A stretch of 64,000 nt of DNA from Streptomyces virus Wollford (lineage: Duplodnaviria > Heunggongvirae > Uroviricota > Caudoviricetes): positions 60,329 through 124,328 of the IMG/VR virus record IMGVR_UViG_2974628344_000001. The stretch is one strand, 5' to 3'. Below the pieces are notes generated by a model, which was given only the letters and a program-made list of their open reading frames with translations, ran no database searches and had not been told where the DNA came from. Both the position numbers and the translations under genes were made by a program. Positions 17,935-57,347 of this stretch are shown here, in pieces; the stretch's first letter is position 1; each line of letters opens with the position of its first letter.

Positions 17935-18102
17935 ATGGCTCTTTCTAATTTGTTTCCTGTGGGAACGCGAGTGAAGGTTACTCGTGGATCTTTTAAGAAC
18001 AAGCGGGGACGGGTTGAAAAGCTTGGCCCTGGAAAGATCGTCGTCCTTGACGATGGAACACCATTGTACGGTTTCAGCGATGAAATGGTAAAGGCGGTAT
18101 GA
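17935..18102 (+). CDS. KOW-like small protein (paralogue family)
   Basis: 55 aa not in track; VGTRVKVTRGSFKNKRGRVEKLG = KOW/SH3-like motif. Confidence 0.45.
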   Translation: MALSNLFPVGTRVKVTRGSFKNKRGRVEKLGPGKIVVLDDGTPLYGFSDEMVKAV

Positions 18103-18309
18103 TGGAAAACAAGGAACAACTAGAAGAGGGAACAAAGATTCTCATTGGCCGTGAGAAGGCTAAGGCCGAGGTCTTTTCCCTTGGAACAAATCCAGATCTC
18201 ATCAAGGCTCTTATGCTTGATGGAGCGCATGAGGGATCAGTTATGCATGTTGTACTTAAGCAAGTACAGCTTGACAACTGAACACCGGGCCTGATATAGT
18301 CAGGCTATT

Positions 18310-18394
18310 GGCGGGTAAGCGATTGGTTAGCAGTCGTGTTGGAAGCACGATAAGGGTGTTAAAGCCCGGCAGAGTTCGATTCTCTGGCCCGCCG
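18310..18394 (+). tRNA. tRNA-Ser (GGA), long variable arm
   Basis: acceptor ggcgggt/gcccgcc, loop uuGGAag, extra arm, T-arm cagagTTCGATTctctg. Confidence 0.75.
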
Positions 18395-18405
18395 CTGGAG
18401 GTGCT

Positions 18406-18633
18406 ATGATTATCTGTGGAGACATGGTTAGAGTAAAGCACAACCGTGAGAATGTTGATCCTGCTTATTACGGTAAGCGTGGTCGGGTTCACAAGCGTAC
18501 TCGATTTCTTAAGAGGCTCGGTGCCGGTGAGTACGAAATTATGTTCTTCGAAAAGGATCTAAATCATCCAATTATGGGTGTAATGGGAGGATTCCTTGAA
18601 GAGGATCTAGAAGTTGTTGGCGGTAAGTGCTGA
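18406..18633 (+). CDS. KOW-like small protein (paralogue family)
   Basis: GDMVRVKHNR...YYGKRGRVHKR motif. Confidence 0.45.
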   Translation: MIICGDMVRVKHNRENVDPAYYGKRGRVHKRTRFLKRLGAGEYEIMFFEKDLNHPIMGVMGGFLEEDLEVVGGKC

Positions 18634-18642
18634 CAGCTTTAT

Positions 18643-18730
18643 GGAAGTGTTAACGTTGGCAGCGTGGAAGGCTCTTGAAAAGCCTACGGTATAGTGATAT
18701 ACCGCGTGAGTTCGAATCTCACCACTTCCG
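18643..18730 (+). tRNA. tRNA-Ser (UGA), long variable arm
   Basis: acceptor ggaagtg/cacttcc, loop cuUGAaa, extra arm, T-arm gtgagTTCGAATctcac. Confidence 0.75.
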
Positions 18731-18733
18731 CTT

Positions 18734-18764
18734 AGTCCGGTGCATAATAGCACCGGACTTTTTC
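18734..18764 (+). terminator. Rho-independent terminator
   Basis: agtccggtgc ataata gcaccggact ttttc. Confidence 0.7.
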
Positions 18765-18923
18765 ATAGGAGCACTATGCTAGGAAAAGGAAAGAAGCAAA
18801 AGGACTGCTATCACATCAATGTGAGATCAATTCACGGTGATGAGATTATCCACAGTGGATACAAGCGGGCCTACTGCTACGATTGCGAACGATATCTACA
18901 AACATTGCCACCGAAAGGGCGAA

Positions 18924-19112
18924 ATGGCTAAGTCAAAGAAAGAGCTGGAAGCCCAGCTAAAGACTTTCCAGAAGGACGTTTCAAAGTACGAAGCCCTTAG
19001 AGATAAGGCATTAAAGGATGGAAATAAGAAAAAGGCTGCCGATTATGCAATGGCTGTAGCCGGACTCAAGAATTCCATCAAGGAAATCGGAACACAACTA
19101 AGGAATATGTGA
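18924..19112 (+). CDS. small basic coiled-coil protein
   Basis: MAKSKKELEAQLKTFQKDV...; internal Met of track ORF 18837..19112. Confidence 0.35.
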   Translation: MAKSKKELEAQLKTFQKDVSKYEALRDKALKDGNKKKAADYAMAVAGLKNSIKEIGTQLRNM

Positions 19113-19501
19113 ACGCTGTACTCATTGGCGTTCTGCTGCATTTTGTTGGTGACTATCTAATCCAGACAGATTGGATGGCCCAATTGAAGACAAAGAGGTG
19201 GGCTCCTGCAATTCTTCACGGAATTACTTATGGTGCTCCATTTCTTTTCGTCACGCAGTCATGGCTAGCTCTACTAGTCATCATCGGAACGCATATCGTA
19301 ATTGACCATTATCGCCTGGCTCGTCATGTAGTCTGGGCGAAAAACCAATTCGCTCCGCGCGAATTCAGATATTCTTGGGCCGAAGGCAGCAAGACGGGGT
19401 ACAGAGATGATGCACCTGTCTGGCTCACCACATGGCTCATGATCATCGCTGACAATACAATACATGTTGCTATCAACACTCTAGCCATCCTCTACCTATG
19501 A
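19109..19501 (+). CDS. integral membrane protein (3-4 TM)
   Basis: 130 aa, multiple hydrophobic helices. Confidence 0.45.
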   Translation: MNAVLIGVLLHFVGDYLIQTDWMAQLKTKRWAPAILHGITYGAPFLFVTQSWLALLVIIGTHIVIDHYRLARHVVWAKNQFAPREFRYSWAEGSKTGYRDDAPVWLTTWLMIIADNTIHVAINTLAILYL

Positions 19502-19504
19502 GGG

Positions 19505-19590
19505 TGGCTTTTGTCATGTCACGATCTTGTCACTGTCATGACACTCTGATGACATGTCACGGTTGTCATGACACTTTTGTCACGGCCTCT
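19505..19590 (+). promoter_or_regulatory. array of TGTCATGACA-type palindromes/half-sites (candidate operator or origin element)
   Basis: ttgtcatgtcac / ttgtcactgtcatgacac / tgatgacatgtcac / ttgtcatgacac / tgtcacgg within 80 bp. Confidence 0.5.
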
Positions 19591-19735
19591 GTTGTGTGTT
19601 GTAACAAATTAGAAAATGCGGCAGGCGTCAGGGTGCCACTGTCATTTCTTCAATTCGTCATGGCCGCGCGGCGGCCCGGCGGCGGGGTTACGTCTTTGCG
19701 GTTCTCCATATATCTAAGAGATGCAAGGAGAGGAG

Positions 19736-19764
19736 TTGACAGAACTACAGAGACCTGTTAAGGT
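19736..19764 (+). promoter_or_regulatory. sigma-A-like promoter TTGACA-N17-TAAGGT
   Basis: matches promoter family seen at least 12 times in window; followed by 85-bp AT-rich tract. Confidence 0.45.
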
Positions 19765-19849
19765 AAATTATACTGGGAAAAGATAAAAGAAGAAGATAAG
19801 TGAAATCGATTTGAAAATCGATACAAGATAATATATTAGGATAATATAT

Positions 19850-20128
19850 ATGAAACTGTTTGAGCTGCACAGAGATGTAGATGCATCAGGAGTCAGCGGT
19901 ACTGGCATCGTTGCTCAAGGTGTACAGTTTGACAACGGACAGTGTGCTATGTCATGGTTGTCTCAGTGGACCTCAGTCGCCTTGTATCCAGATATTGAAA
20001 CGCTGGAAGCGATTCATGGACACAACGGCAACACTCGTGTAGTATGGCTAGAAGAAGAACTGGACTTCCACACTCCCCTTGATCCAGATGTTCGGGCAAA
20101 GCTTGTGGAAAAATACTCTAAGGACTGA
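19850..20128 (+). CDS. hypothetical protein
   Basis: 92-aa ORF after AT-rich leader. Confidence 0.4.
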   Translation: MKLFELHRDVDASGVSGTGIVAQGVQFDNGQCAMSWLSQWTSVALYPDIETLEAIHGHNGNTRVVWLEEELDFHTPLDPDVRAKLVEKYSKD

Positions 20129-20294
20129 CATGTTCAATGGTTTTGGTGACTTCCTTGACACGATGAACAAGAGTATGGCACAGTGGGAAGCAGAGCAAGA
20201 GAAGATCCGAGAAGCATTTGCGGCCGGTGTAGAGGTTGAGTTCGAAGATGGTGAAGTACGAGAGTACGGACCGTTTGACAAGCCCTCTCCTTGA
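20129..20294 (+). CDS. hypothetical acidic protein
   Basis: internal Met of track ORF 20079..20294 (MFNGFGDFLDTMNKSMAQWEAEQEK...). Confidence 0.3.
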
Positions 20295-20425
20295 TGCTAA
20301 TGTAGTTTTAGGTGGTCAGCCATAAGGCGGTAACGTTGAATTGGCCCGCTGCCTATGAATGGTCGGCAAGCAGGTAAATGAGGAACACAGGAGCTTGAGC
20401 AACAACCCCTCTACCATTCAATCTT

Positions 20426-20502
20426 GGCCTATGGGACTGCTAGGTTGTGGTCACCGCCCTGTCAAGGCGGATATCAGGCGGGTTCGATTCCCGTATAGGT
20501 CG
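20426..20502 (+). tRNA. tRNA-Asp (GUC)
   Basis: acceptor ggcctat/ataggtc, anticodon stem ccgcc/ggcgg, loop cuGUCaa, T-arm gcgggTTCGATTcccgt. Confidence 0.65.
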
Positions 20503-20522
20503 CTCTTGTAATCAATCTAAGG

Positions 20523-20747
20523 ATGACTATGGCTAAGACATTCGAAGTGAATGGCACTTACAAGGTTGGCAAGGACGTTCGTCCGTTTTCCAATCTGTAT
20601 ATGGCGGATTCTGCTTCTGCTGCTGAGAAGTTTGCTAAGAAGGAGTTCGAGAAGGAATGCCATCACTATGGCGTGCCTCGTGGTACAAAGCTAAATGTCA
20701 CAAATTCTAGGCCGATCTCAGAAGCAGAGATCAAGCGTAGGAAGTAA
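20523..20747 (+). CDS. hypothetical protein
   Basis: 74-aa ORF between tRNAs. Confidence 0.4.
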   Translation: MTMAKTFEVNGTYKVGKDVRPFSNLYMADSASAAEKFAKKEFEKECHHYGVPRGTKLNVTNSRPISEAEIKRRK

Positions 20748-20767
20748 TAAATGCGCTTCGGCGCTAT

Positions 20768-20839
20768 CCCGGCGTGGTGAACTGGTTATCATGCTTGTCT
20801 GTCGAACAAGAGTAGAGGGTTCAATTCCCTTCGTCGGGG
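20768..20839 (+). tRNA. tRNA-Asp (GUC)-like second copy (G37)
   Basis: acceptor cccggcg/cgtcggg, D gtga/tcat, stem cttgt/acaag, loop cuGUCga, T-arm gagggTTCAATTccctt. Confidence 0.5.
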
Positions 20840-21060
20840 CTTTGAGGGTCGAATGATTATCGGTTATCTGTCTATGAAACAGACTGAAACACGGTTCGAA
20901 TCCGTGGATTGCTTTGGCGCTAGGTTTACGGTCGATATCAACAACTTATCCTCATACAACTTAATTCGGGCCGAAGAAGTTCGATTATCTTACACTGCAA
21001 ATATAAGATCGATCTTCACCAACTTGCCCGATCTTTTCATTTCTACGGAAGGATCAAAGG
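20840..21060 (+). ncRNA. candidate structured ncRNA (Y-RNA/YrlA-like?) upstream of Ro60 gene
   Basis: 220 nt with no convincing ORF; contains tRNA-like T-arm cacggTTCGAATccgtg (20888-20905) without full cloverleaf; track ORF 20853..21083 is low-complexity. Confidence 0.3.
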
Positions 21061-21396
21061 TTGGACACCGAAGCACGCATTGAACGCTTCAAGCAGCTAT
21101 GGCAGTCTGGCGATAGCTATTGGGCAGAAGACATTGTTGACGAGATCAATGAGTCTCTTGCTGATGATGAATTCAAGCTAAGGCATGTAGATCAAATTGA
21201 GGAAGATACTTCCCGGTGGATGGATCACATGCTTGACATTGTTGAGATTGACGAAGGTGTCTTTGTTGGAGTACGCTGGGACAGCGGTAAGACAGAGATG
21301 CAAGAGAATATGTACGAAGACGACAATGTCTATCTACTTGAACGTGTAGAACGAGTTGTTACCACTGTTGAGTGGAATGACGTAAAGACTGTCTAA
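21061..21396 (+). CDS. hypothetical acidic protein
   Basis: 111 aa, Asp/Glu-rich, directly upstream of Ro60 gene. Confidence 0.5.
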   Translation: MDTEARIERFKQLWQSGDSYWAEDIVDEINESLADDEFKLRHVDQIEEDTSRWMDHMLDIVEIDEGVFVGVRWDSGKTEMQENMYEDDNVYLLERVERVVTTVEWNDVKTV

Positions 21397-21431
21397 AATC
21401 AAATGCCCTACGAGGGCCGGAAAGGAAAGAA

Positions 21432-23060
21432 ATGTCCAACGCACTAACTAATGCCGCAAAGGCAACCAACAAGACTTCTCAGTCAATGAAGGCCAAGGAT
21501 GGACAGGTCAAGAACAACGCTGGTGGATTCGTCTTCCAGGTTTCTGATCAGTCACGCCTGGAGCGCTTCTTGATTCTAGGAACTGATGGAGGAACGTATT
21601 ACGTCTCTGAGGTTAACCATACTCAGTCAAACGTGAACTTCCTCAATGAGTTCATTGCTCGTGATGAGGCTAATGTGCTGAACACAATCGTTGATGTATC
21701 TGTCAATGGTCGTGCGTACAAGCAGTCTCCAGCCCTATTTGCTCTGGCTTCTGTCATTGTCAACGGCAAGGACAAGCAGGCAGTTAAGGCTGTATTCAAC
21801 AAGGTCGTAAGGACTGCTACTCATCTCTACGAGGTGGTTAACTATCTTAACGAGCTTGGTGGATGGGGTCGTGCAAAGCGTGAGATCGTAGCTGGTTGGT
21901 TCGATAAGGAAGCTGATAAGCTTGCTTATCAGGCAGTCAAGTATCGTTCCCGTACCTTTGGTGGAAACACCTGGACGCTACGAGACGTAATGCGAAAGGC
22001 TCACCCACAGAACGTCGACACGTCTGTTGCTGATTTCGTTCTAGGCAAGGAGCGCGATGCTACTGATAACCTTCGGGTTATTGAGGGCTTCAAGCTTATG
22101 CAGAAGGCGGAGTCTGTAGAGAGTGTTCATGCAGTTCTGCGGGATTACGAGATGCTTTCTTGGGAGACAATTCCAACGCAGTTCCTCACGGATGCTAGTG
22201 TTTGGAAGCGACTCTTCGCAAATGGTCAGCTTCGTGGTCAGGCTGCTGTTCGAAACATTACTCGCCTTGCGCGCATTGGTGCTTTCAAGGACATGCAGTT
22301 TGCTGCAAGCTTCGCCAGTCAGCTAACGAATGAGGAAATGATTCGTCAGTCTCGACTGCACCCAATTAACTTCCTCAACGCTGCTGTTGTTTATGCAGAA
22401 GGTCAGGTGGATCGAAAGAACATCTGGGGCGAACGTGTAAAGAACTGGGAGACTGAGGCCGTTATTGTCGATGCAATCGATGAGGCGTTCCACAAGTCAT
22501 TCAAGACCATTGAGCCAGCCGGTAAGAGGACGATGCTAGCCATCGACTGTTCCGGATCAATGAGTACACAGGCTATGGGTCTCGACCTAAGCTGTGCACA
22601 AGTTGCTGGTGCTATGGCGATGACCATTGCACGTACTGAGCCAGCTCACATCCTTCGTGGCTTTTCAAGCGCGGGATACAACTGGCGTGATAGCGGTATG
22701 GCCGAACTAAAGATTACTGGTCGCAGCTCTCTTGCTCAGGCAATGAGTGCAATGCGTGCGGTAAACTGGGGCGGTACAGACTGTTCACTGCCAATGACGT
22801 GGGCTCTTGAGAATGGTGTAGAAGTTGACACCTTCGTTGTTCTAACGGATAACGAAACATGGGCTGGAAAGATTCACCCATTCCAGGCTCTCAAGAACTA
22901 TCGTAAGAGCACAGGTATTGATGCACGACTTGCTGTTCTAGGAGTCGCTTCAACTCCATTCACTATTGCTGACCCAAGTGATAGTGGAATGATGGACTTC
23001 GTTGGCTTTGATAGCAACGCTCCACGTGTTCTAGCAGATTTTTCCGCCGGTCGAATCTGA
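21432..23060 (+). CDS. rsr: Ro60/Rsr orthologue (TROVE domain + C-terminal vWA)
   Basis: N-terminal NNAGGFVFQVSDQSRLERFLILGTDGGTYY TROVE signature; C-terminal LAIDCSGSM MIDAS (vWA); 542 aa. Confidence 0.85.
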   Translation: MSNALTNAAKATNKTSQSMKAKDGQVKNNAGGFVFQVSDQSRLERFLILGTDGGTYYVSEVNHTQSNVNFLNEFIARDEANVLNTIVDVSVNGRAYKQSPALFALASVIVNGKDKQAVKAVFNKVVRTATHLYEVVNYLNELGGWGRAKREIVAGWFDKEADKLAYQAVKYRSRTFGGNTWTLRDVMRKAHPQNVDTSVADFVLGKERDATDNLRVIEGFKLMQKAESVESVHAVLRDYEMLSWETIPTQFLTDASVWKRLFANGQLRGQAAVRNITRLARIGAFKDMQFAASFASQLTNEEMIRQSRLHPINFLNAAVVYAEGQVDRKNIWGERVKNWETEAVIVDAIDEAFHKSFKTIEPAGKRTMLAIDCSGSMSTQAMGLDLSCAQVAGAMAMTIARTEPAHILRGFSSAGYNWRDSGMAELKITGRSSLAQAMSAMRAVNWGGTDCSLPMTWALENGVEVDTFVVLTDNETWAGKIHPFQALKNYRKSTGIDARLAVLGVASTPFTIADPSDSGMMDFVGFDSNAPRVLADFSAGRI

Positions 23061-23061
23061 G

Positions 23062-23090
23062 CAAAGCCCCTCTTCGGAGGGGTTTTTTGC
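23062..23090 (+). terminator. Rho-independent terminator
   Basis: gcaaagcccctc ttcg gaggggtttttt. Confidence 0.75.
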
Positions 23091-23102
23091 TATACTTGAC
23101 AG

Positions 23103-23243
23103 ATGATTAGTAAAGAAGAACGAAAGCAATTGAAGCTAGCAAGATCAAAGGCAGAGCTAGTAAGAACTGTGACAAGCATCTTTCAGATGATTATTGCATC
23201 TGCCACTCTCATCATTCTGGTGTACGTAAACTTCATGCGTTGA
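23103..23243 (+). CDS. small membrane peptide
   Basis: 46-aa ORF not in track; hydrophobic C-terminal helix IIASATLIILVYV. Confidence 0.25.
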   Translation: MISKEERKQLKLARSKAELVRTVTSIFQMIIASATLIILVYVNFMR

Positions 23244-23268
23244 CAAGCTGAGCGAGATGCGATAGCTT
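23240..23268 (+). promoter_or_regulatory. promoter TTGACA-N17-TAGCTT
   Basis: member of recurrent promoter family. Confidence 0.35.
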
Positions 23269-23414
23269 AGAGACATGAACAGCAACGAGCCAGGTGTAAC
23301 GCTCTCAAGCCTATTGCGAATGATCTTCAAGAGATCTGTTAAAGTTCGCCCGGCGGTGATAGAGTCAACCTGTGGCCATTGTAAGACTAAATACAATATT
23401 AACGTAGGACATAT

Positions 23415-23681
23415 GTGTCCCTACATCAAAGACCTATACTCCAAATTGGGGGAGCGATGACAGAGCACAAGTACGAAACTCGAACCTACCGCTTTGAAGG
23501 AACACATAAGCTCGCAGACGAAGTTGCACATCTTGCAATTACAAATGACTGTCGAGTAAGCACACGTACTGCTTCTGGAATGCTTCGAAAGAAGAAGCAT
23601 CTCTTTGTAGTGTTTGGTGCCGTGGCTCGTCTTGAGCGTTTCGAAACGCAGATGGAAAAGGCGAAGGGACGGATTCAGTGA
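23415..23681 (+). CDS. hypothetical protein
   Basis: 88-aa ORF. Confidence 0.35.
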   Translation: MSLHQRPILQIGGAMTEHKYETRTYRFEGTHKLADEVAHLAITNDCRVSTRTASGMLRKKKHLFVVFGAVARLERFETQMEKAKGRIQ

Positions 23682-24022
23682 CATTCGAGAAGAAGTTCAA
23701 GCAGGCATTCAAGGACACTCGTAAGGCTGGCATTGTTGCTAAGATGCAGGTCTGGGAATGCTGCCGAGGATGCATTGGTAAGGAAAAGCTTGGGATGACC
23801 TCTGACAATGATCCATATGTTTACACGTATGCTGGTCAGGGATCAAGGGTCAAGTTCGATGGTGATTCCGTAATGTACGCTGACAATGGTCATTCTGTTT
23901 CTCACATCTATGTTTACCACGGAAATGGCGGCGGCGAAAAGTTCACAGAGGTTGCCAAGTCCCTCGGTCTTGATGTAGAGTGGGACGGAGACAAGTGGTC
24001 AGCAATCGTAGTGAAGGTGTGA
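23678..24022 (+). CDS. hypothetical protein
   Basis: 114-aa ORF, start overlaps upstream stop. Confidence 0.45.
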   Translation: MTFEKKFKQAFKDTRKAGIVAKMQVWECCRGCIGKEKLGMTSDNDPYVYTYAGQGSRVKFDGDSVMYADNGHSVSHIYVYHGNGGGEKFTEVAKSLGLDVEWDGDKWSAIVVKV

Positions 24023-24023
24023 G

Positions 24024-24341: not shown

Positions 24342-24567
24342 CATGACTGGTCGTCCGCTTAATGTGGGCGATCGTGTCATTTTTGCCAGGCCACAAGGTG
24401 GCAACTCAAAGGGTGGCATGCTAGACTCTGGAACGATAACCAAGATCAGCAAGGACTCTGGGGTGATCTCCATCCGTGTTGACAACGGTCCCAAGTCTAG
24501 GTATGGTAGAAGGACAGTTGCCACTCCGTGGCACGAAAGAAAGTTCTATAAGCTGGAGGACCAATGA
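24325..24567 (+). CDS. KOW-like small protein (paralogue family)
   Basis: VGDRVIFARPQGGNSKGGMLDSGTITKI motif. Confidence 0.4.
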   Translation: MQTFTDMTGRPLNVGDRVIFARPQGGNSKGGMLDSGTITKISKDSGVISIRVDNGPKSRYGRRTVATPWHERKFYKLEDQ

Positions 24568-24675
24568 TAAGGATCTCAGAAGCATACTTTGACGATGCAA
24601 GCGGCCTGGTGCTAGTAAAGACCAAGAGTGGTTCCTATGCAACGTATGTTTCAACAGATACAGTAGAAGAAGAAC

Positions 24676-27162: not shown

Positions 27163-27327
27163 GTGAGATATAAAAAGGGAACACGAATTCAATTCGTTGA
27201 AGGTGGCCTAAGAGGTAAAAAGGGCAGGGTTGTTCGATGGGATAGCCCCGGTGTTCATAGAGTTGTTTTAGATGAACTTCCAGATAAGGAATTCATCGCT
27301 CAAACTCACAGATTCATGAAGATTTAG
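27163..27327 (+). CDS. KOW-like small protein (GTG start)
   Basis: 54 aa not in track; GTRIQFVEGGLRGKKGRVVRWD motif. Confidence 0.35.
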   Translation: MRYKKGTRIQFVEGGLRGKKGRVVRWDSPGVHRVVLDELPDKEFIAQTHRFMKI

Positions 27328-32596: not shown

Positions 32597-32764
32597 ATGA
32601 TTAAGTTTGCTAAGAGTCTCAAGCCTGGTGACGTGACAATGTATGGACGTGTGGTTGCGAATCAGGTACTATGGACTAACAACACTGTTCAGCTAACGAT
32701 TGCAGAACAGAGCGAGAACGTTTACCTTAAGAAGTATAAGATCGTTCGGACTAACAAAGGATAA
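32597..32764 (+). CDS. KOW-like small protein
   Basis: MIKFAKSLKPGDVTMYGRVVANQVLW; internal Met of track ORF 32561. Confidence 0.4.
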   Translation: MIKFAKSLKPGDVTMYGRVVANQVLWTNNTVQLTIAEQSENVYLKKYKIVRTNKG

Positions 32765-32767
32765 GAA

Positions 32768-33154
32768 TTGAGCATCGAAGACGACATTGCCAAGGAGATT
32801 GCAGGCGAAGCTGAGGCTGAGGCTGCTTCTGGTAAGTCATGGAAGCGTATTGCCGCTGAGTCCGCCTGGAAGTTTTCCAGGGAAAAGGGTTATCCTGCCT
32901 TCAAGGCTGGTGTAAAGTTCCTTTACGCTCAGGGTAAGGATCTCAAGAACAAGCCCACAAAGCCCGGCGACAAGAAGGCATCTGCCCTTCGTCCTGGTGA
33001 TGTAACTGTTCTTGGTCAGGTTTCTGAGTCCAAGAAGGACCCTATTGCCAGAGGTCAGTATCAGATCTCATTCATCTCCTCACGAGGAGTTGTTGTTGAG
33101 ACTGTTCCTGGCAACAAGAAGTTTGGCGTTGTAGAGCGTCGACAGGTTAAGTGA
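32768..33154 (+). CDS. hypothetical protein with KOW-like C-terminal half
   Basis: LRPGDVTVLGQVSESKKDPIARGQY resembles neighbours. Confidence 0.45.
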   Translation: MSIEDDIAKEIAGEAEAEAASGKSWKRIAAESAWKFSREKGYPAFKAGVKFLYAQGKDLKNKPTKPGDKKASALRPGDVTVLGQVSESKKDPIARGQYQISFISSRGVVVETVPGNKKFGVVERRQVK

Positions 33155-34528: not shown

Positions 34529-34699
34529 ATGGCTAACAACAAGGTATGGAAGGTCGGAGACAAGGTAAAGTCTAACGACAACAAGTACAGTGGCAAGGTT
34601 GTTGAGATTATCAACGAGACGCATGTAAATGTAAACGTTGACGGACATGGCAAGATGCAATTTCGTAATAGAGAGCTGAAGCGCCAGTTTGGTGGCTGA
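34529..34699 (+). CDS. KOW-like small protein
   Basis: VGDKVKSNDNKYSGKVVEI motif. Confidence 0.45.
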   Translation: MANNKVWKVGDKVKSNDNKYSGKVVEIINETHVNVNVDGHGKMQFRNRELKRQFGG

Positions 34700-47821: not shown

Positions 47822-47986
47822 ATGGCAAGTTACAAAGAGGGCGATAAGGTGGAGTTCATCCGAGGCCCATACGATGGCAAAAGAGGAACAATCAAGTTCG
47901 TCACAGCTCACGGCAAGTTGCTTGTTGACTTGAAGGACGGCAGTGATGTATACTCAAATTCAGAGGATGTGAAGAAGGTTGGCTAA
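47822..47986 (+). CDS. KOW-like small protein
   Basis: EGDKVEFIRGPYDGKRGTIKFV. Confidence 0.45.
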   Translation: MASYKEGDKVEFIRGPYDGKRGTIKFVTAHGKLLVDLKDGSDVYSNSEDVKKVG

Positions 47987-47996
47987 GCTAGGCGAC

Positions 47997-48131
47997 ATGG
48001 TCACTGTGAAGAAGACTGCTATGCTTGCTAAGGTTATTGGCAAGTCTGAGGTCTTTGGCAAGGTGACTTACGAAGTTGAACAGCTTAACGGCAGACGAGT
48101 TACAGTAAAGCAGAACGAGATCAAGGAATGA
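47997..48131 (+). CDS. KOW-like small protein
   Basis: 44 aa. Confidence 0.3.
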   Translation: MVTVKKTAMLAKVIGKSEVFGKVTYEVEQLNGRRVTVKQNEIKE

Positions 48132-48220: not shown

Positions 48221-48424
48221 ATGGTATATCTAAGAGTTGGCGGTTGGGCAATGGTTGTAGAAGATCATTGGATCGGACCAGTCAACTATAAGAATAAGTA
48301 TGGCCGAGTTGTTATGATGACCAGGAAAAAGATCGTTATTGACTTTCCTGGTCATAAGCAATTTGAAGACATTCCGAGGATAAAGGTGGTTGCCTATCAG
48401 CCGCCTAATAAGGAGATAACATGA
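48221..48424 (+). CDS. KOW-like small protein
   Basis: NKYGRVVMMTRKKIVIDF. Confidence 0.4.
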   Translation: MVYLRVGGWAMVVEDHWIGPVNYKNKYGRVVMMTRKKIVIDFPGHKQFEDIPRIKVVAYQPPNKEIT

Positions 48425-49543: not shown

Positions 49544-49789
49544 ATGCATTCTTCACGACACCCTCTGGCTGGTCAGACTGTGACTGTTAAGTCTGGTCCT
49601 TATGCCGGTCAGTCATATAAGATCGAAGACTGGTTTGACCGAGTGGTTGGAAAGTCCTGGAAGGATCTGGCTTTTCGTAATCATGGCGCTGCTACAAAGT
49701 ACGCGCAGAGCGGTCAGCCAAACAACGATGAGGTTGTTTACGGTAAAATCGGCTGGAGTGGAGAGGCTATCAACGTAGTCCATCTCTGA
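49544..49789 (+). CDS. KOW-like small protein
   Basis: AGQTVTVKSGPYAGQSYKIEDW. Confidence 0.4.
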   Translation: MHSSRHPLAGQTVTVKSGPYAGQSYKIEDWFDRVVGKSWKDLAFRNHGAATKYAQSGQPNNDEVVYGKIGWSGEAINVVHL

Positions 49790-51014: not shown

Positions 51015-51295
51015 CAATGTTTAATCCGAAGCGCGAAGTGTACTACACCATTGATGCATTCGATCTGAACGAACTTGTTGAGAGCGAGTTTGGAACTGCT
51101 TGGGACTTCGTGGCCGCAGAAGAATGCAGCAATGACAGTGCTCATGTGATTCATCCTGATCTTAATGGTCTGGGTGAGGACGGAACTGAGGATGCAGAGG
51201 GAATGCAATATGCTTCTGCAAGGGACGTCATTGGTGAACTTGTGAAGCGAGAGATTCTTCCTTCTGGTAAGTATCTCGTGGAGGTTTGCTGGTAA
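51005..51295 (+). CDS. hypothetical acidic protein (paralogue)
   Basis: see 50631..51014. Confidence 0.45.
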   Translation: MVVTMFNPKREVYYTIDAFDLNELVESEFGTAWDFVAAEECSNDSAHVIHPDLNGLGEDGTEDAEGMQYASARDVIGELVKREILPSGKYLVEVCW

Positions 51296-51528
51296 TGGGT
51301 TGGGGATCAGGAACGCGCTACTTTGACTATCCTCTAGACCTCATGTTAGAGTGTGTCCCAGAAGAAAAGCGCAAGGAAGTCATTGAGAAGCTTTATCAAT
51401 TCATCAGAGATGGTGACTGGGACACAGTAAACGAGTCAGCATACTTCGACTTGCTTGTCGAATATGACATTGATAGCTATGGGGTCTATGCTGATGAATA
51501 TGAGAACGAGACAGAGGAACCTTGGTAA
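51286..51528 (+). CDS. hypothetical acidic protein
   Basis: 80-aa ORF. Confidence 0.4.
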   Translation: MLVMGWGSGTRYFDYPLDLMLECVPEEKRKEVIEKLYQFIRDGDWDTVNESAYFDLLVEYDIDSYGVYADEYENETEEPW

Positions 51529-51913
51529 GTGTAAGTGTGGTCGGAATAAGCTAACCGGCCACCTTCGTACCTACAACGGTTATGACAAGAATCTTTGTCC
51601 ACAGTGCAATGCAGAAAGAATGATTTATGAAATCACGGGTCGTACTCCTGCTAACCATCTTGATAGCAATCGGAGTGCTGGGCAATCTGACTCTGATGCT
51701 TGCACTGAATGAGGCAAAGGACTCATTCGTAAAGGAAATATCAATTGACTTACAGTGAGATGCGCATCGATATGCGCATTCGGCATATAACAACTGGCCT
51801 CAAGGCAACCATTGGAAAGATTGAAGGTGGAAAGTTCACATATGTCGATGAAAAAGGACGGACCCGCACACTCGACCGATACTATGCAGGTGAGTGGGAG
51901 CGGATCATATAAC

Positions 51914-52270
51914 ATGGACACCGGTCTTTCTAAGAAGGACCGGTCATTCCTGTCTCTCGCTATGGAACTGTCTGCTAATTCAAATATGAAGCAGAAGCAT
52001 GGCGCGGTGATTGTTAGGTCTGGTCGGGTTCTGTCTCGTGGATGGAACACTTTGAAGAACGATCCTAACAATATCAGTGATGAGCACATTGAGCGGTTCT
52101 GCTCTGTGCATGCCGAAGCAATGGCCATCGCCCGATGCAAGAAGGCCGCTGGAGCAATTATTTATATCGCTCGTAACAAGGATGGCAAGGCTGTTTTTTC
52201 AAAGCCCTGTGACGCCTGTGAGCGATCCATCCTTCTTGCTGGCATTAAGCGTGTGGTCTACACAGGTTGA
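51914..52270 (+). CDS. deoxycytidylate (dCMP)/cytidine deaminase
   Basis: zinc-binding HAEAMAI ... PCDACERSI motifs; internal Met of track ORF 51812. Confidence 0.75.
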   Translation: MDTGLSKKDRSFLSLAMELSANSNMKQKHGAVIVRSGRVLSRGWNTLKNDPNNISDEHIERFCSVHAEAMAIARCKKAAGAIIYIARNKDGKAVFSKPCDACERSILLAGIKRVVYTG

Positions 52271-52324
52271 CTCTTCGATCATCGCTGTGTTAATGTTGTA
52301 CTAACAACGAACGAAGGGAACATC

Positions 52325-53095
52325 ATGGCTAAGATCATGATCGCTGGTGACTGGCATGGCGACACTGTTCATGCTCGTAAGACTGTCCGACGTGCGGATG
52401 CTATGGGTGTTCGTAAGATCATGCAGGTTGGTGACTTTGGTTACTGGGAGCATGACGAGGATGGTGTCACTTATCTTGACGCTCTGAATGAGGAGTGTCG
52501 GAAGTATGGCATCAAGGTTTACTTTGTTGCCGGTAACCATGAGAATTGGGATCGACTCGACTGGCTTGAGAAGAACAATCCCAAGACTTACAATGGACTG
52601 ACAATTATCCGAAGTCACATTCGTTACACCGGGCGAGTTAACCGGTGGCGATTTGACGACAGATGGTTCCAGGCTGTTGGTGGTGCCGTTTCAATTGACA
52701 AGAATCGGCGTAAGCTTGGTAAGACTTGGTGGGCTCAGGAGGCTGTTCCTGAGCGAGTCGTTAAGAGTCTTGAGATTCATGGCAATCAGTCTGATATTCT
52801 TCTGACTCACGACTGCCCAACTCATGCACCATTCGGTTTCCGGTTGAAGGACGATCCTGATTCAACAGCTCATCGTCAGCTTATGGACAGGGTTGGCCGT
52901 GTGGTCCGTCCTACATTGTGGTTTCACGGTCACTATCACACGTGGATGGAGAATTATCCATTTGCTCATCAGCTTGGAGAGGCCAGCGTTTACGGCCTTG
53001 AGATGAACGGGATGTTCTACAACTACTGTGTTCTTGACACGGACAACCTCTCTGTTCAGACTGCAACTGGAAAGATCAACCATCTGCTTGCTTGA
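52325..53095 (+). CDS. calcineurin-like metallophosphoesterase
   Basis: GDWHGD, GDFGYW, GNHEN, HGHYH motif series. Confidence 0.7.
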   Translation: MAKIMIAGDWHGDTVHARKTVRRADAMGVRKIMQVGDFGYWEHDEDGVTYLDALNEECRKYGIKVYFVAGNHENWDRLDWLEKNNPKTYNGLTIIRSHIRYTGRVNRWRFDDRWFQAVGGAVSIDKNRRKLGKTWWAQEAVPERVVKSLEIHGNQSDILLTHDCPTHAPFGFRLKDDPDSTAHRQLMDRVGRVVRPTLWFHGHYHTWMENYPFAHQLGEASVYGLEMNGMFYNYCVLDTDNLSVQTATGKINHLLA

Positions 53096-53181
53096 TCCGC
53101 CTCATAAACAAGTCTGTGCTATTCTTTTAGAGAATTCTTCAAGAATGCGCAGACTTGGAGAGAAGGAGGTGAAAGTAAGAA

Positions 53182-53547
53182 ATGGCAAATGACAAGGATT
53201 ACCAGTACCGTAGCTCTCAGGACGTTGTTGCTCCCCACCTAGATCCACTAGCAGATGAGGATGCAAAGCGTGCAGAGGAAGCCGGTGTTAAGGACTCAGC
53301 TTTTGTTGACTATGAGCAGGCTCTAGACAACTACCAGTCTCGTCCAGATGTTGAAACTCTTGCAGCACGTCGTGCACGTGAGGGTGGATGGAAGTTTGAA
53401 GATGCGGCTTTCCGTCGCTCCACTGAAAAGGACGAACTAACTGGTGGTGGTGTTGTTACAACTGATGACGCTACTGCAAAGAAGACCGAGCAGCAGAATG
53501 AAGTCAAGGACACCAATTCAGCACCAGCTCGTAAGTCAAGCAAGTAA
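53182..53547 (+). CDS. hypothetical charged protein
   Basis: 121-aa ORF, Asp/Glu/Lys-rich. Confidence 0.4.
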   Translation: MANDKDYQYRSSQDVVAPHLDPLADEDAKRAEEAGVKDSAFVDYEQALDNYQSRPDVETLAARRAREGGWKFEDAAFRRSTEKDELTGGGVVTTDDATAKKTEQQNEVKDTNSAPARKSSK

Positions 53548-53636
53548 TCAGACTTTGTAGTACAATTGAACAGGAGGGATCTTCCTTCCTGTTCTTTTGT
53601 ATCTAACAAACAAATAAGCACTATCTAAGGAAAAAT

Positions 53637-53876
53637 ATGTCTGTTGTTCTGGATTACAATTCAGTCGAAGCATTCGTCACTGAGCAGCGCAAGCTAAAGA
53701 ATGACGTTCGCTGGGATGGCTGGACACTTGTTTTCTTCCGCAAGAGTCGCAATTTCTCAGGTTGGAGTAAGCCTAATGGGGCCTACCGCAACAACAACTG
53801 GGGTTTTGAAACTCGTATCGCGGTGGGCAATGATGGGAAGTGGAGGGTACCTTCTCGCAATGTCCGGAATTCTTGA
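53637..53876 (+). CDS. hypothetical protein
   Basis: 79-aa ORF, 17-nt overlap with WhiB start. Confidence 0.35.
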   Translation: MSVVLDYNSVEAFVTEQRKLKNDVRWDGWTLVFFRKSRNFSGWSKPNGAYRNNNWGFETRIAVGNDGKWRVPSRNVRNS

Positions 53877-54171
53877 GCAGAGGGGCATAAGTCCGGAGGA
53901 AGTACAGTGGGAAGACTTGGCTCTATGTCGTGGTCTTCCCACTTCTTTCTTCTTCGAGACTTATGAAGAGGATAAAATCTCAGCCCGATACGTAGATGAA
54001 ATGTGCCTTCGCTGTCCAGTCATGAAGCAATGTGCAATGGCAGCTAAGGAGAACTCAGGATTCGGAGTTTGGGGCGGTGTTTATTGGAACGCTGCTAGGG
54101 TAGATAAGTATCGTAATGCCCATAAGACTCCGGAAACATGGGAGAGAATCAGAGAAAGGCTGGCGGAGTGA
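53860..54171 (+). CDS. whiB: WhiB-like Fe-S transcription factor
   Basis: CRGLPTSFFF ... CLRCPVMKQC four-Cys cluster and GVWGG turn; internal Met of track ORF 53701. Confidence 0.8.
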   Translation: MSGILEQRGISPEEVQWEDLALCRGLPTSFFFETYEEDKISARYVDEMCLRCPVMKQCAMAAKENSGFGVWGGVYWNAARVDKYRNAHKTPETWERIRERLAE

Positions 54172-54476
54172 GCGCAGAGAATGCATACGCTCTCTTGCAG
54201 ATAGAGAACGCCAGGAAGCTGTTCAGGGAATTTGTTTTTGAGCCTGGCACTGGATTCGTCTGTGACTTTGTTCAATACCCTGCAACGCAGCATGACGTTC
54301 CTAACTTCGCTCTGAGAGCCTACAGCAACACCTTTGACAATCTTTCACAGAAGAACAAGCTGTTGATCACCGAGCAGATCGGCAGCTTGATTCAGAAAAT
54401 CCGTTCTCTTGGTGTCAACTGTATTTTGGAGGTAGAGGATGCACCGGGAAAGCCAAGTGGTTCTGGTCGTCAGTGA
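54138..54476 (+). CDS. hypothetical protein
   Basis: 112-aa ORF. Confidence 0.4.
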   Translation: MGENQRKAGGVSAENAYALLQIENARKLFREFVFEPGTGFVCDFVQYPATQHDVPNFALRAYSNTFDNLSQKNKLLITEQIGSLIQKIRSLGVNCILEVEDAPGKPSGSGRQ

Positions 54477-54611
54477 AGGTGTTTACGGAATAATCACCCA
54501 GGTACATAGCTATATGTGCAAGGTGCAGTACTCTGTGGACGGAATTGAGTTTCACGAGTATTTCGATAATGATGACCTTGAAGTCATCGGAGAAATTGGA
54601 TATGAGGAGGA

Positions 54612-54842
54612 GTGAGCGAACTGGTTTGTCAAATCTGTGACAAGCAGAGGAATTCACTGGTTAATTACAAGTCAAGGCTTAATCCAGATATGGAATTCAT
54701 GGCTTGCTCTCCGTGTGCAAGTGGTGAAATCGAGCCTCGATGGCTTGTAATTCTTATGGCTCGTTCTGGAACTGATGTGAGCCGGTGGGTAGAGAATCGT
54801 CTTTACTATGGAGACGACATTACATCAGACCATTTGAATTAA
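54612..54842 (+). CDS. zinc-ribbon small protein
   Basis: CQICDK...CSPCASGE. Confidence 0.4.
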   Translation: MSELVCQICDKQRNSLVNYKSRLNPDMEFMACSPCASGEIEPRWLVILMARSGTDVSRWVENRLYYGDDITSDHLN

Positions 54843-54848
54843 GCCATC

Positions 54849-54906
54849 AGGCCGGGTATACTAGCCAAGACTAGGGAACTATGGGGTTCGAATCCCTACC
54901 GGCCAC
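54849..54906 (+). other. truncated (about 58 nt) D-armless tRNA-like element
   Basis: acceptor aggccgg/ccggcca, 4-bp hairpin ctag-ccaaga-ctag, T-arm tggggTTCGAATcccta. Confidence 0.3.
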
Positions 54907-55176
54907 AATAAATCCCCTTGACGGGAGGAAAATGTACTTTGATGACGAATATTCAACGGCAGAATGCATAAAGGATCTCACAAAGAGCATTTGGATTACC
55001 ATTAAGCTCGTACTGAGATCAGAGGCAACTCCAGAAGAAATTGCTGGTGCTGCTGAGAGGGCTAAATTTCTACGCCTTTATCTAACTAGATATCACAACA
55101 AGAGAATGGCGACGCTCACTGACACAGAAGTTTGGCTTGCACAAGAGGTGGCCGAGGCCGTTGAAGATTTGATTGA

Positions 55177-55205
55177 TTGACTTTTAACTCATCAGTGATT
55201 ACAAT
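55177..55205 (+). promoter_or_regulatory. promoter TTGACT-N17-TACAAT
   Basis: canonical -35/-10 spacing; ATG 6 nt after -10 implies leaderless transcript. Confidence 0.5.
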
Positions 55206-55211
55206 TTGCAT

Positions 55212-55613
55212 ATGTCCAGAATATCTACAGCGTTTGTGAAGATGTACAAGCATCCCCTCGGTACTATCGAGGTGATGATTGCTGTTGGTCTTTTGGTTTC
55301 AGGATTGTATACGATGAGTTGGTTTTATGAACCTGCATCAACGACTCCCTTGGGTGTAGCTGTTGATTCAACCGCAGTGAGAATGAGTATTGGAGCATTT
55401 TATTCACTCTCCGCTCTGACTGTCATTTTTGGATCTGTTAGATCAAATGACGGCTGGCGTGCAAAAGGTTTGTTTGCTATTTCTCTGAGCTATGGGTTTA
55501 TGACATTGCTCAGATGGCTAACTATTGGAATTACTCCATTGACTTGGGTGTTCAGCCTTACTCTCATGTTCATCGTTGCATTCCTTTACTTTAGGATAAG
55601 GTTGCTGAGATGA
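55212..55613 (+). CDS. integral membrane protein (4 TM)
   Basis: four hydrophobic helices; holin-like size. Confidence 0.4.
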   Translation: MSRISTAFVKMYKHPLGTIEVMIAVGLLVSGLYTMSWFYEPASTTPLGVAVDSTAVRMSIGAFYSLSALTVIFGSVRSNDGWRAKGLFAISLSYGFMTLLRWLTIGITPLTWVFSLTLMFIVAFLYFRIRLLR

Positions 55614-55909
55614 TGCCCGAGATGACTACGGCTTGGATTGCCCTATTGGGAACGGTGCTGGGGGGTGTTGGACTTAAGTTTGTTGAACACTGGCTCAGTC
55701 GTAGCAAGGTACGGGATGACACAGCCGCTCAGCTTAGAAATGAGCTAAGGACTGAAATTCAGGGCCTCAAGCAGGAGCTGAACAATGTTGAAGCCGACCT
55801 AGACAAGTGGCGTGGAAAGTATTACGAATTGATGGACAACTTCATCAAGGTAAAGAGTGAGCTAGAAGCAGCCATGAGGCAGCTACAAAACAATCAACCC
55901 CCTGGCTAA
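55610..55909 (+). CDS. membrane-anchored coiled-coil protein
   Basis: N-terminal TM then coiled coil LRNELRTEIQGLKQELNNVEADLDKWRGKYYEL. Confidence 0.35.
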   Translation: MMPEMTTAWIALLGTVLGGVGLKFVEHWLSRSKVRDDTAAQLRNELRTEIQGLKQELNNVEADLDKWRGKYYELMDNFIKVKSELEAAMRQLQNNQPPG

Positions 55910-55942
55910 TGCTGGGGGTGTTGTGTTATAGTAAGGAGCAAT

Positions 55943-56134
55943 ATGCAAACAGTTGCGGAACGTCCGCTGAATAAGACAGAAGATCGTTGCGATAAGTGCA
56001 GCGCTCAGGCATTTGTAATTGCAGAGAAGGAAGATCTTGTACTTCTGTTCTGCGGGCATCATGGCAAGCAATACAAGCAATCACTTGAGGTAAAGGGATG
56101 GAGTCTACTAGACTTCACAGATGAGATCGGATGA
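55943..56134 (+). CDS. zinc-ribbon small protein
   Basis: CDKCSAQ...CGHH. Confidence 0.35.
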   Translation: MQTVAERPLNKTEDRCDKCSAQAFVIAEKEDLVLLFCGHHGKQYKQSLEVKGWSLLDFTDEIG

Positions 56135-56137
56135 TCA

Positions 56138-56353
56138 ATGGGCTACATAGAAGTATGGGTAGATGAAGAGGAATTCGAAGACGACTTCCTTGACGCTCTA
56201 CAGAGTGGCGAGTATGATGAACATGTAAGACGCCGAGCCGAAATGCTTGGACTAGATGTTTCTATAGCTCAGAAGTTTCACGAGCTGCTGCATCCGCAGG
56301 GCACGTTGACAATCGAGCGGTGCAGAGAGTATCCTTGTAACGAAGCCACCTGA
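56138..56353 (+). CDS. hypothetical acidic protein
   Basis: 71-aa ORF. Confidence 0.35.
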   Translation: MGYIEVWVDEEEFEDDFLDALQSGEYDEHVRRRAEMLGLDVSIAQKFHELLHPQGTLTIERCREYPCNEAT

Positions 56354-56366
56354 TGAAAGGTAAGTA

Positions 56367-56780
56367 ATGGAAATCGGAGATATTGTAATTCTTGCCAACG
56401 ACCCTGATGCCGGAAGTGGCTGGGAGGGTCTTATGTGCGAGGTTACTGAGATTAACGAATCCAGGGGTGGATATACATGGGTACGACCTTTTAGCAATCG
56501 ACCTGATGGATTCAAGAAGGCTCCATTCTTCTGGAAGACAAGGAATATGCAGACAAGAAGGATCGAAGATCCTGGCCCTGCAAAGGGTGCTCTAGCTATG
56601 ATTGTTGTCCCCCAGGAAGAAATTGACAGCAATCCCAATCTTGCAAAGTGGCAGGGATTTGAAGCCACTGTAGAAAGGGTTGATGGTAGCATGGTCAGAA
56701 TTCGTGCCCTGTCTCCTCGCCCTGATGGAAACAAGATACTTTCCTTTTATTGGGAAAAGAAGTGGCTCATCTTCGAATGA
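56367..56780 (+). CDS. tandem-duplicated KOW/SH3-like protein
   Basis: two repeats each ending RP(D/F)...RPDG(F/N)K... FxWxK. Confidence 0.45.
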   Translation: MEIGDIVILANDPDAGSGWEGLMCEVTEINESRGGYTWVRPFSNRPDGFKKAPFFWKTRNMQTRRIEDPGPAKGALAMIVVPQEEIDSNPNLAKWQGFEATVERVDGSMVRIRALSPRPDGNKILSFYWEKKWLIFE

Positions 56781-56800
56781 GTCTCGCCCTTCGGGGCTAT

Positions 56801-56875
56801 TCCCCCGTGGTCTGCTGGCATGGCCCACCTGACTTTGAATCAGGTTGTTCGTAGGTTCGATTCCTGCCGGGGGAG
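56801..56875 (+). tRNA. tRNA-Gln (UUG)
   Basis: acceptor tcccccg/cggggga, stem cctga/tcagg, loop cuUUGaa, T-arm gtaggTTCGATTcctgc. Confidence 0.7.
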
Positions 56876-56896
56876 CTTTTAATTGGAGGAGATAAT

Positions 56897-57142
56897 ATGG
56901 CTGCACAGTTCAGCTTTAATGATCCAAACGGTAAGCCTGTAAACAAGGTCGACTACGTAAAGGTAAAGAACGCACCTCGTAATCTAAGTGAGTGGAATGG
57001 TGTAGTGGCAATGGTCATGAGCGTCCCTCTTACAGATCGTACAGTTCTTCTTTCAATTGAGAAGAACAAGCCAAAGAATTACGACCAGCGAATTGTCTAC
57101 ATTTCAACTCAGTACCTATATCTTGAGAAGAAGAGGACTTGA
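56897..57142 (+). CDS. small protein (KOW/SH3-like family)
   Basis: 81-aa ORF. Confidence 0.4.
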   Translation: MAAQFSFNDPNGKPVNKVDYVKVKNAPRNLSEWNGVVAMVMSVPLTDRTVLLSIEKNKPKNYDQRIVYISTQYLYLEKKRT

Positions 57143-57152
57143 TTTGGAAGAC

Positions 57153-57347
57153 ATGGCAGGCAATAAGATCCAGGGTGATAGCATCGTTGAGTTGTACCAT
57201 GAAGGCCCCTGGAACGGCTTTAGAGCAAAGGTTTTAAAGCACCGGGGCAAGAGCATGGTATGGCTTTCTCCATTAGAGCCTAGGCCAGATGGCAACGGTA
57301 TGAGCAAGTTCGTATGGCCACTAAACAGCTTGACGGTGGTCAGCTAA
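57153..57347 (+). CDS. KOW/SH3-like small protein (single-repeat paralogue of 56367)
   Basis: LSPLEPRPDGNGMSKFVWP matches repeat of 56367..56780. Confidence 0.4.
   Translation: MAGNKIQGDSIVELYHEGPWNGFRAKVLKHRGKSMVWLSPLEPRPDGNGMSKFVWPLNSLTVVS

Follow-up and report, generated by a model that had tools for sequence, protein, structure and literature searches.

Distinct families of small KOW/SH3-like proteins interleaved with the tRNA genes of Streptomyces phage Wofford

Large phages rich in transfer RNA (tRNA) genes are thought to supply tRNAs of their own to counter codon mismatch or host defences that target tRNAs, and the small genes threaded between these tRNAs have until now almost all been recorded as hypothetical. 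The SH3-like barrel is a very common small fold. Among the described proteins that come closest to the genes treated here, NusG and Spt5 carry a KOW domain beside an NGN domain, the KOW domain of ribosomal protein uL24 is followed by a C-terminal extension, and in EF-P and eIF5A a domain I, described for EF-P as KOW-like (PMC6544042, PMC5615199), precedes the OB-fold domains II and III. The nearest phage precedent is gp156 of phage Riptide, a protein of 50 amino acids (aa) published as 'ribosomal protein uL24' (PMC12509530) in a paper that concerns one gene, assigned as a ribosomal protein, and gives no account of several families; apart from this annotation, no earlier description of the gene set was found in the literature. 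The present analysis concerns 15 small open reading frames (ORFs) in a window of 64,000 nucleotides (nt) of Streptomyces phage Wofford (NC_048722.1; Stanwilliamsviridae, Karimacvirus, actinobacteriophage cluster BE). Megablast gives 100% identity to this genome over window positions 47000-58000, and a window position is the genome position less 60328. The feature consists of distinct families of KOW/SH3-like mini-proteins, one member type of which is the one already published as 'uL24'.

The original prediction took the 15 ORFs for a single expanded family of paralogues united by a G-D-x-V...G-x-x-K-G-x-x-G-x-V motif. As genes they hold up: all 15 are present as described on the + strand, 13 of them are annotated coding sequences in NC_048722.1, and the remaining two (ORFs 27163-27327 and 47979-48131), which have no annotation in Wofford, are genes 145 and 221 of the 98%-identical phage Elmer. 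Most have protein-level orthologues of 30-85% identity in other cluster BE phages, and to judge from this conservation the candidate genes are real and maintained across the cluster. Comparison was made with the homologous 50-kb regions of the cluster BE phages Jay2Jay, BoomerJR, NootNoot and Coruscant; orthologue alignments were prepared for 92 small genes of the region, and the 15 candidates were compared by hhalign with all 92, the other 77 serving as controls. Using BLASTP and hhalign together, only 7 of the 105 candidate pairs have E < 1e-3, and these are spread over three or four groups, which is not the pattern of one paralogue family. Against the controls no pair at all passes the same threshold (0 of 1155, hhalign), and the profile links therefore appear to be specific to the candidates.

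The significant pairs define a family A (g111, ORF 27163 and g212), a family B (g158 and the C-terminal half of g159) and a family C1 (both domains of g244, and g247). A further group, C2 (g246 and g130), is tied to C1 only weakly, with hhalign probabilities of 57-76% (g244 with g246, 57%; g130 with g246, 76%) and reciprocal hidden Markov model (HMM) matches between C1 and C2 at E = 1e-3 to 1.5e-2. An iterated HMM search seeded with family A converged at 12 members across the five phages and picked up no other candidate family. The best sub-threshold matches of the A profile are mostly other candidate families, as is to be expected of ORFs picked by this very motif; the motif itself, supposed to be shared by all, is complete only in family A, where G10, G18, K23 and G25 are invariant. 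As far as profile comparison can distinguish them, the candidates thus fall into three or four families, if not more, that are unrelated in sequence, together with singletons. What they represent is a collection of small (50-140 aa), mostly very basic proteins belonging to several fast-evolving, lineage-restricted families that are unrelated in sequence and have in common a five-stranded SH3-like/KOW-type beta-barrel architecture.

Family A is identified by its profile matches as a genuine KOW-motif family. The sequence signature of the Pfam KOW family (PF00467) is found in family A and, at the borderline, in g166, and the five-stranded SH3-like beta-barrel of the KOW family appears in the structure predictions made for two families other than A. 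A single sequence, g111, scores 22.1 bits against PF00467 (cut-off 22.3) and carries the UniRef label 'KOW domain-containing', while g212 gives weak matches to Pfam KOW and Spt5 KOW4 and to UpxY, Spt5 and rplX of NCBIfam. When the family profile is searched against the PDB it matches Spt5 (E = 6e-13, summed over several KOW repeats), uL24 (8e-5) and NusG (2.9e-4), all of which share with it the glycine/lysine motif. The likeness ends with the domain, however: single sequences of family A score 13-17 bits against the NCBIfam profiles UpxY, NusG, Spt5 and rplX, for which the cut-offs are 54-150, and they do so over the KOW segment only. No full-length uL24 match is obtained (rplX_bact, 16.1 bits against 53.7, covering profile positions 4-36 of 104, from proteins of 50-55 aa that lack the extension of uL24), nor do these proteins belong to NusG, Spt5 or UpxY (nusG, 12.9 bits against 135.7; UpxY, 14-17 against 100), being too short for an NGN domain. 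Since the scores lie at or below the cut-offs and are confined to the KOW segment, the members are best regarded as stand-alone KOW domains, neither NusG nor uL24.

The NusG match raises the idea that family A mimics the C-terminal KOW domain of NusG and competes with host NusG for S10 or Rho; the effect would be a loss of transcription-translation coupling or less Rho-dependent termination along the long transcripts of the phage. Besides the profile match at E = 2.9e-4, the KOW regions of UpxY, NusG and Spt5 are the best of the weak NCBIfam matches, and g212 has 'GPY' and g111 'GSF' at what we take to be the place of the 'GPF' through which E. coli NusG contacts S10 and Rho. Mimicry of this kind is nevertheless unlikely, as uL24 and Spt5 score equal to or above NusG, so that the profile cannot tell them apart, the NGN domain is absent, and scores of 12.9-17 bits fall far under cut-offs of 100-150.

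The members of family A differ in their distribution. Synteny of g111 is kept in 89 cluster BE phage records, and a homologue search from the single g111 sequence returned 3 matches. ORF 27163 is present only in Wofford and Elmer, and is linked by hhalign to g212 (E = 5.6e-7) and to g111 (E = 2.3e-6); g212 and g111 are linked to each other at E = 4.5e-7. A tblastn search locates g212 in 46 phage records, of which 43 are from Streptomyces phages, and the gene neighbours different tRNAs in Wofford and in BoomerJR; the longer start proposed for it, at 47822, is also the one annotated in Elmer. For g166 the proposed start at 34529 is likewise backed by the annotation of BoomerJR. This protein has 40% identity (E = 5e-7) to Riptide gp155, and the profile of their subfamily aligns with the A1 profile at E = 1.3e-4 with a probability of 54% (hhalign); against the PDB it gives nothing significant, the best match being the Tudor domain of SPF30 (E = 0.16). 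On these profile alignments g166 is probably a divergent relative of family A.

Riptide gp156 itself (PV654398.1, 89445-89597) lies between two tRNA genes and matches the A profile at E = 4e-8; by this match the published 'uL24' belongs to family A, in a phage of the same group, and its 50 residues correspond only to the KOW part of uL24. The published name thus reads too much into the gene, since a KOW domain of 50 aa does not amount to 'ribosomal protein uL24'. Between tRNA-Lys(ttt) and tRNA-Arg(tcg), Riptide (gp155 and gp156), BoomerJR, NootNoot and Coruscant have one or two KOW-like genes, and those of BoomerJR (gene 169), NootNoot and Coruscant include further members of family A, whereas the same spacer in Wofford (window 34780-34808) is empty and 27 nt long. 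A spacer filled in the relatives and empty in Wofford indicates that genes of this kind come and go quickly at tRNA junctions.

Family B has no sequence link to family A, and for that reason its member g159, along with g244 of family C1, was chosen for AlphaFold2. A common KOW-like fold had been expected throughout; in these two proteins, which are the ones modelled, both predictions gave KOW-like barrels, and families B and C1 are accordingly predicted to be KOW-like. In the g159 model (13-row alignment) the N-terminal helices are of low confidence and residues 67-122 form a beta domain with a predicted local distance difference test (pLDDT) score of ~80. As had been supposed, the match between g159 and g158 (hhalign E = 1.3e-6) is confined to the C-terminal half of g159; g158 has orthologues in all four of the other cluster BE phages compared. 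Two methods agree that the structure closest to the C-terminal domain of g159 is domain I of EF-P, EfpL and eIF5A, and in Foldseek the top 28 places are all occupied by eIF5A, EF-P or EfpL. The modelled domain has the KOW-like barrel with extended beta3/beta4 hairpin that characterizes the fold of EF-P domain I, and in particular the long beta-hairpin with a short tip loop that is common to EF-P, EfpL and a/eIF5A. The layout differs from that of EF-P, since the domain is fused behind a helical N-terminus in g159 and stands alone in g158. Family B (g158, g159) is thus predicted to resemble the KOW-like domain I of EF-P/eIF5A, the likeness being structural only.

On this model family B could be supposed to consist of translation factors of the EF-P/eIF5A kind, or of decoys, with access to the peptidyl-transferase centre or to the acceptor end of tRNA. 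We think this improbable, given that there is no sequence relationship to EF-P: the B profile finds nothing significant and no EF-P in the PDB, and in a profile search of 1.84 billion proteins the 8 clusters returned all belong to this one lineage-restricted family, with nothing that bridges to EF-P. Neither domain II nor domain III, the anchors of EF-P on the ribosome, is present; g158 has no conserved basic hairpin tip; the model of g159 is of moderate confidence; and with its 8 clusters worldwide the family is a very limited one.

The proteins of family C are barrels of a third kind, with RPDG motifs. The tandem arrangement proposed for g244 is confirmed, its two domains being homologous to each other, and the AlphaFold2 model (seven-row orthologue alignment) has a mean pLDDT of 87 and consists of two five-stranded domains, the second with two short helices inside its first loop. 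The model superposes best on the KOW domains of Spt5 and NusG, a likeness that is seen by model only, family C lacking the KOW sequence motif. g247 aligns with g244 at E = 2.1e-8 (hhalign), and both match PHROG 12836, which g246 approaches at 0.019; g130 matches weakly PHROG 7955, the PHROG of g212 (E = 0.0048). Neither profile finds anything significant in the PDB, the best matches being a head-to-tail stopper for C1 (E = 0.16) and 4p5n for C2 (E = 0.2). Other small SH3-like or Tudor-like proteins, namely YorP of the B. subtilis phage SP-beta (2heq), PsaE, NdhS, OapB and the 4p5n protein, have no significant sequence relationship to the candidates; their functions are diverse and have nothing in common. 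In all five phages tRNA-Gln is surrounded by a small, conserved array of C-family genes, and the g246 orthologue of Jay2Jay begins at the called end of the tRNA, the corresponding start in NootNoot being ambiguous. One C1 domain was also seen outside this group, in P0012, a protein of 292 aa from an unrelated actinophage-like contig (L007 3326-4204, Logan SRR22868748), where a further barrel-like segment precedes it at the N-terminus and a long C-terminal stretch follows it; the neighbouring genes are ArdA-like, DUF2786, ThyX, WhiB, dCMP deaminase and serine-recombinase genes, and this genomic context gives no clue to function.

Five ORFs have no significant links. Among them g114 is notable for its conservation, with 65-81% identity in BoomerJR, Jay2Jay and NootNoot (unusually high for the region) and the same position between tRNA-Ser genes in these phages, with gaps of ~10 nt on each side. 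It finds nothing in Pfam or in PDB profile searches, aligns with g111 at E = 2.8e-3 (hhalign), and when searched as an alignment joined with that of g244 returned one relative of its own. The name 'F0F1-type ATP synthase epsilon subunit' given to its family in IMG was rejected, having no backing in Pfam, NCBIfam or the PDB. g214 is the top sub-threshold match of the A profile (E = 0.026-0.035) and matches neither Pfam nor PHROG; g220 matches Pfam KOW at E = 0.014 over residues 10-23 only, aligns with g111 at E = 1.4e-3 (hhalign), and finds nothing in the PDB as a profile. g230 has orthologues in all four of the other phages, no significant hhalign link to the other ORFs and nothing in the PDB profile search, and the weakest candidate, ORF 47979, has neither profile links nor an orthologue in any of the four phages of cluster BE with which Wofford was compared. 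More generally, families B and C, g114, g214 and g230 have no significant match in Pfam or NCBIfam, a sequence match to a KOW profile is absent for B, C1, C2, g114, g220 and g230 in Pfam and PDB profile searches, and every PHROG matched by a candidate is of 'unknown function'. The claim of a KOW/SH3-like fold throughout is therefore sustained in part: sequence or model supports it for 11 of the 15 ORFs (12 domains), and g114, g214, g220, g230 and ORF 47979 have sub-threshold matches only.

These five ORFs bring up the most sceptical interpretation, which is that short ORFs, spurious or unrelated to one another, resemble each other in the motif by chance and that there is no real feature. It can appeal to their lack of links, to the failure of ORF 47979 to appear in the four phages compared, and to the restriction of the full motif to family A. 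It is at odds, however, with the annotation of 13 of the 15 ORFs in Wofford and the conservation of most across phages, with profile links that are significant among the candidates only, and with the barrels predicted for two families other than A; this interpretation is already largely refuted, and we regard it as most improbable. The positions of all candidates and of related features are collected in Table 1.

Table 1. Candidate KOW/SH3-like genes and related features; positions are those of the window unless another sequence is named.
Feature	Position	Strand	Description
g111	17935..18102	+	55 aa; KOW-motif protein, family A; 26 nt 3' of tRNA-Ile(tat)
ORF 27163	27163..27327	+	54 aa; KOW-motif, family A; unannotated in Wofford
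g212	47822..47986	+	54 aa (ATG at 47822); KOW-motif, family A
g166	34529..34699	+	56 aa from MANNK start; ends 7 nt 5' of tRNA-Lys(ttt)
g158	32597..32764	+	55 aa; family B; stand-alone version of the g159 beta domain
g159	32768..33154	+	128 aa; three predicted N-terminal helices and family B beta domain (~67-122); ends 20 nt 5' of tRNA-Arg(cct)
g244	56367..56780	+	137 aa; two C1 domains in tandem, W..G and RPDG motifs; ends 20 nt 5' of tRNA-Gln(ttg)
g247	57144..57347	+	67 aa; one C1 domain
g246	56897..57142	+	81 aa; C2, weakly related to C1; 20 nt 3' of tRNA-Gln
g130	24343..24567	+	74 aa; C2; no adjoining tRNA
g114	18406..18633	+	75 aa; conserved singleton flanked by tRNA-Ser(gga) and tRNA-Ser(tga)
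g214	48221..48424	+	67 aa; singleton; ATG is the first base past the called end of tRNA-Leu(gag)
g220	49544..49789	+	81 aa; singleton; KOW-like N-terminal stretch
g230	51745..51912	+	55 aa; conserved singleton
ORF 47979	47979..48131	+	50 aa; weakest candidate; annotated only in Elmer (gene 221)
tRNA-Lys/tRNA-Arg spacer genes	L008 1788-2098 (Riptide); L003 20443-20589 (BoomerJR); L004 18474-18796 (NootNoot); L005 18928-19134 (Coruscant)		
tRNA end/start junctions	26397/26398, 27162/27163, 33247/33248, 37829/37830, 47821/47822, 48220/48221; 36549 one base further; also L002-L005		

Several of these genes begin exactly where a tRNA ends. The 202 tRNA genes on the + strand of the five phages were scanned for an ATG or GTG that begins an ORF of 35 codons or more, with tRNA ends as called by ARAGORN, and in 29 of the 202 a start codon lies at the first base past the called end, while offsets 1-60 have 0-6 cases each. 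In 11 tRNA genes of the window, judged by acceptor-stem pairing, the discriminator base and one C are encoded and are followed directly by the start codon. Candidates with such abutting starts are ORF 27163 (GTG, after tRNA-Val(tac)), g212 (ATG, after tRNA-Leu(taa)) and g214. This arrangement suggests that tRNA 3' processing makes mRNAs with a leader of zero or one base, and the abutting starts may accordingly mark tRNA-punctuated, nearly leaderless messages; no earlier description of tRNA-abutting start codons in phages was found in the literature. Another such junction, after tRNA-Glu(ctc), opens the conserved ORF 26398-26649 (+ strand, unannotated in Wofford), whose 83-aa product has a hydrophobic membrane-like segment and 74-84% identity to BoomerJR gene 142, NootNoot gene 130 and a Jay2Jay ORF.

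On the + strand between 17 and 37 kb, sigma-70-like promoter matches, many of them TTGACA-N17-TAGAGT, number 39, compared with 23.8 +/- 4.7 in shuffled sequences, an excess consistent with many short promoter-tRNA-ORF units. Examples are at 18271, 26253, 28909, 32500, 33498 and 35851, several of which closely precede tRNA genes or g158. In window 17000-37000 terminator-like hairpins likewise exceed expectation (36 against 15.1 +/- 3.2).

The window as a whole has a G+C content of 47% and contains 43 tRNA genes and one transfer-messenger RNA (tmRNA) gene by ARAGORN, every one on the + strand. In NC_048722.1 the region is annotated with ~100 small coding sequences, nearly all 'hypothetical protein', and the annotated neighbours are a Ro-like RNA-binding protein, an RNA ligase, a polynucleotide kinase, an RNase H/exonuclease, a SprT-like protease and WhiB; in other cluster BE phages a nucleotidyltransferase gene lies directly upstream of an FtsK-like gene. 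Among the tRNA genes themselves, a second tRNA-Tyr(gta) at 37608-37679 is annotated in the Wofford record and does not appear in the ARAGORN output, and the tRNA at 38435-38510, labelled 'tRNA-Cys(gct)' in the record, has the anticodon gca according to ARAGORN. The HNH endonuclease gene g171 (36056-36514) overlaps by 38 nt the 5' part of a second tRNA-Met(cat) (36477-36549), an arrangement also present in Riptide (gene 160, tRNA 161), and another HNH gene (28206-28649) is placed among tRNAs.

The best explanation for the candidate set, to which we would give a probability of about 0.4, is that these KOW/SH3-like mini-protein families are small modules that bind RNA, the ribosome or RNA polymerase in the phage takeover of translation, the binding being inferred. 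The candidates are co-oriented with the phage tRNAs and would probably be carried on shared transcripts; the barrel proteins would then dock as small modules on RNA, ribosome or RNA polymerase, and the outcome would be a Streptomyces translation and RNA metabolism retooled by a phage that brings its own tRNA set. The surroundings fit a role with RNA, in that tRNAs, tmRNA, the Ro-like protein, RNA ligase and polynucleotide kinase are all nearby. The statement that most candidates adjoin tRNA genes is borne out in Wofford, where 11 of the 15 lie within 30 nt of one compared with 18 of the 77 controls (Fisher p = 3.5e-4), although the candidates had been picked while looking around tRNAs, so that the test is not fully independent; an enrichment is also present in BoomerJR (p = 5e-4). 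The candidates have a median isoelectric point (pI) of 9.7, compared with 5.7 for the 77 other small genes (Mann-Whitney p = 4e-4), and 12 of the 15 exceed a pI of 8.5 compared with 35% of controls, a difference that picking by a K/R/G-rich motif partly forces.

That selection effect counts against a binding role, and so do several other results. In Jay2Jay, NootNoot and Coruscant, three of the five phages, the enrichment next to tRNAs falls short of significance, and small genes that encode no barrel abut tRNAs likewise, as does ORF 26398-26649, so that adjacency is not specific to these folds. The tandem-domain protein g244 is acidic (pI 5.3), and one third of the ORFs (5 of 15: g114, g214, g220, g230 and ORF 47979) lack a confirmed fold. 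For family B, the profile aligns with a profile of EF-P domain I (five PDB sequences) at an hhalign probability of 0.05%, Pfam EFP_N gives no match at E <= 10 in 13 members, and EF-P domains II and III are missing.

Much of this would be expected if the candidates were instead generic small accessory or host-takeover proteins with a common fold, such as inhibitors of protein-protein interactions or anti-defence factors, located in a permissive, promoter-driven cassette zone and having no tie to tRNAs, ribosomes or transcription. Such a zone would accommodate families unrelated by sequence, non-barrel genes that abut tRNAs alike, and the fast gene turnover near tRNAs (ORF 27163 only in Wofford and Elmer, the uL24-like gene absent from Wofford, the neighbours of g212 not the same); nor would it be surprising that adjacency enrichment is weak beyond the Wofford/BoomerJR lineage, that a C1 domain occurs in the P0012 fusion beside ArdA-like, WhiB and ThyX genes, and that all matched PHROGs are of unknown function. 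Less easily accommodated are the specific KOW sequence motif of family A, which goes beyond a mere barrel, the finding that the structures closest to family B are domain I of EF-P/eIF5A and not generic SH3 domains, and the far more basic character of the candidates than of neighbouring small genes. This alternative is a real, if tentative, contender and weighs nearly as much as RNA or ribosome/RNA polymerase binding.

An extended form of the binding explanation, which we hold doubtful, would see in the set a toolkit of stand-alone mini-domains shaped like parts of the translation and transcription machinery (a NusG/uL24-type KOW, an EF-P-domain-I-like barrel and an RPDG barrel), expressed by tRNA punctuation and docking on host ribosomes, tRNAs or RNA polymerase. 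If that were true, gene expression would be reprogrammed during infection by docked mini-domains. Should the abutment of tRNA ends and start codons indeed generate leaderless mRNAs by processing, the tRNA punctuation of mitochondria would have a counterpart in a bacterial virus. For the phages themselves, many of the genes between tRNAs encode basic KOW/SH3-type barrels, one of them predicted to be EF-P-domain-I-like, and these are testable candidates for contact with the ribosome, with tRNA or with the coupling of transcription and translation.

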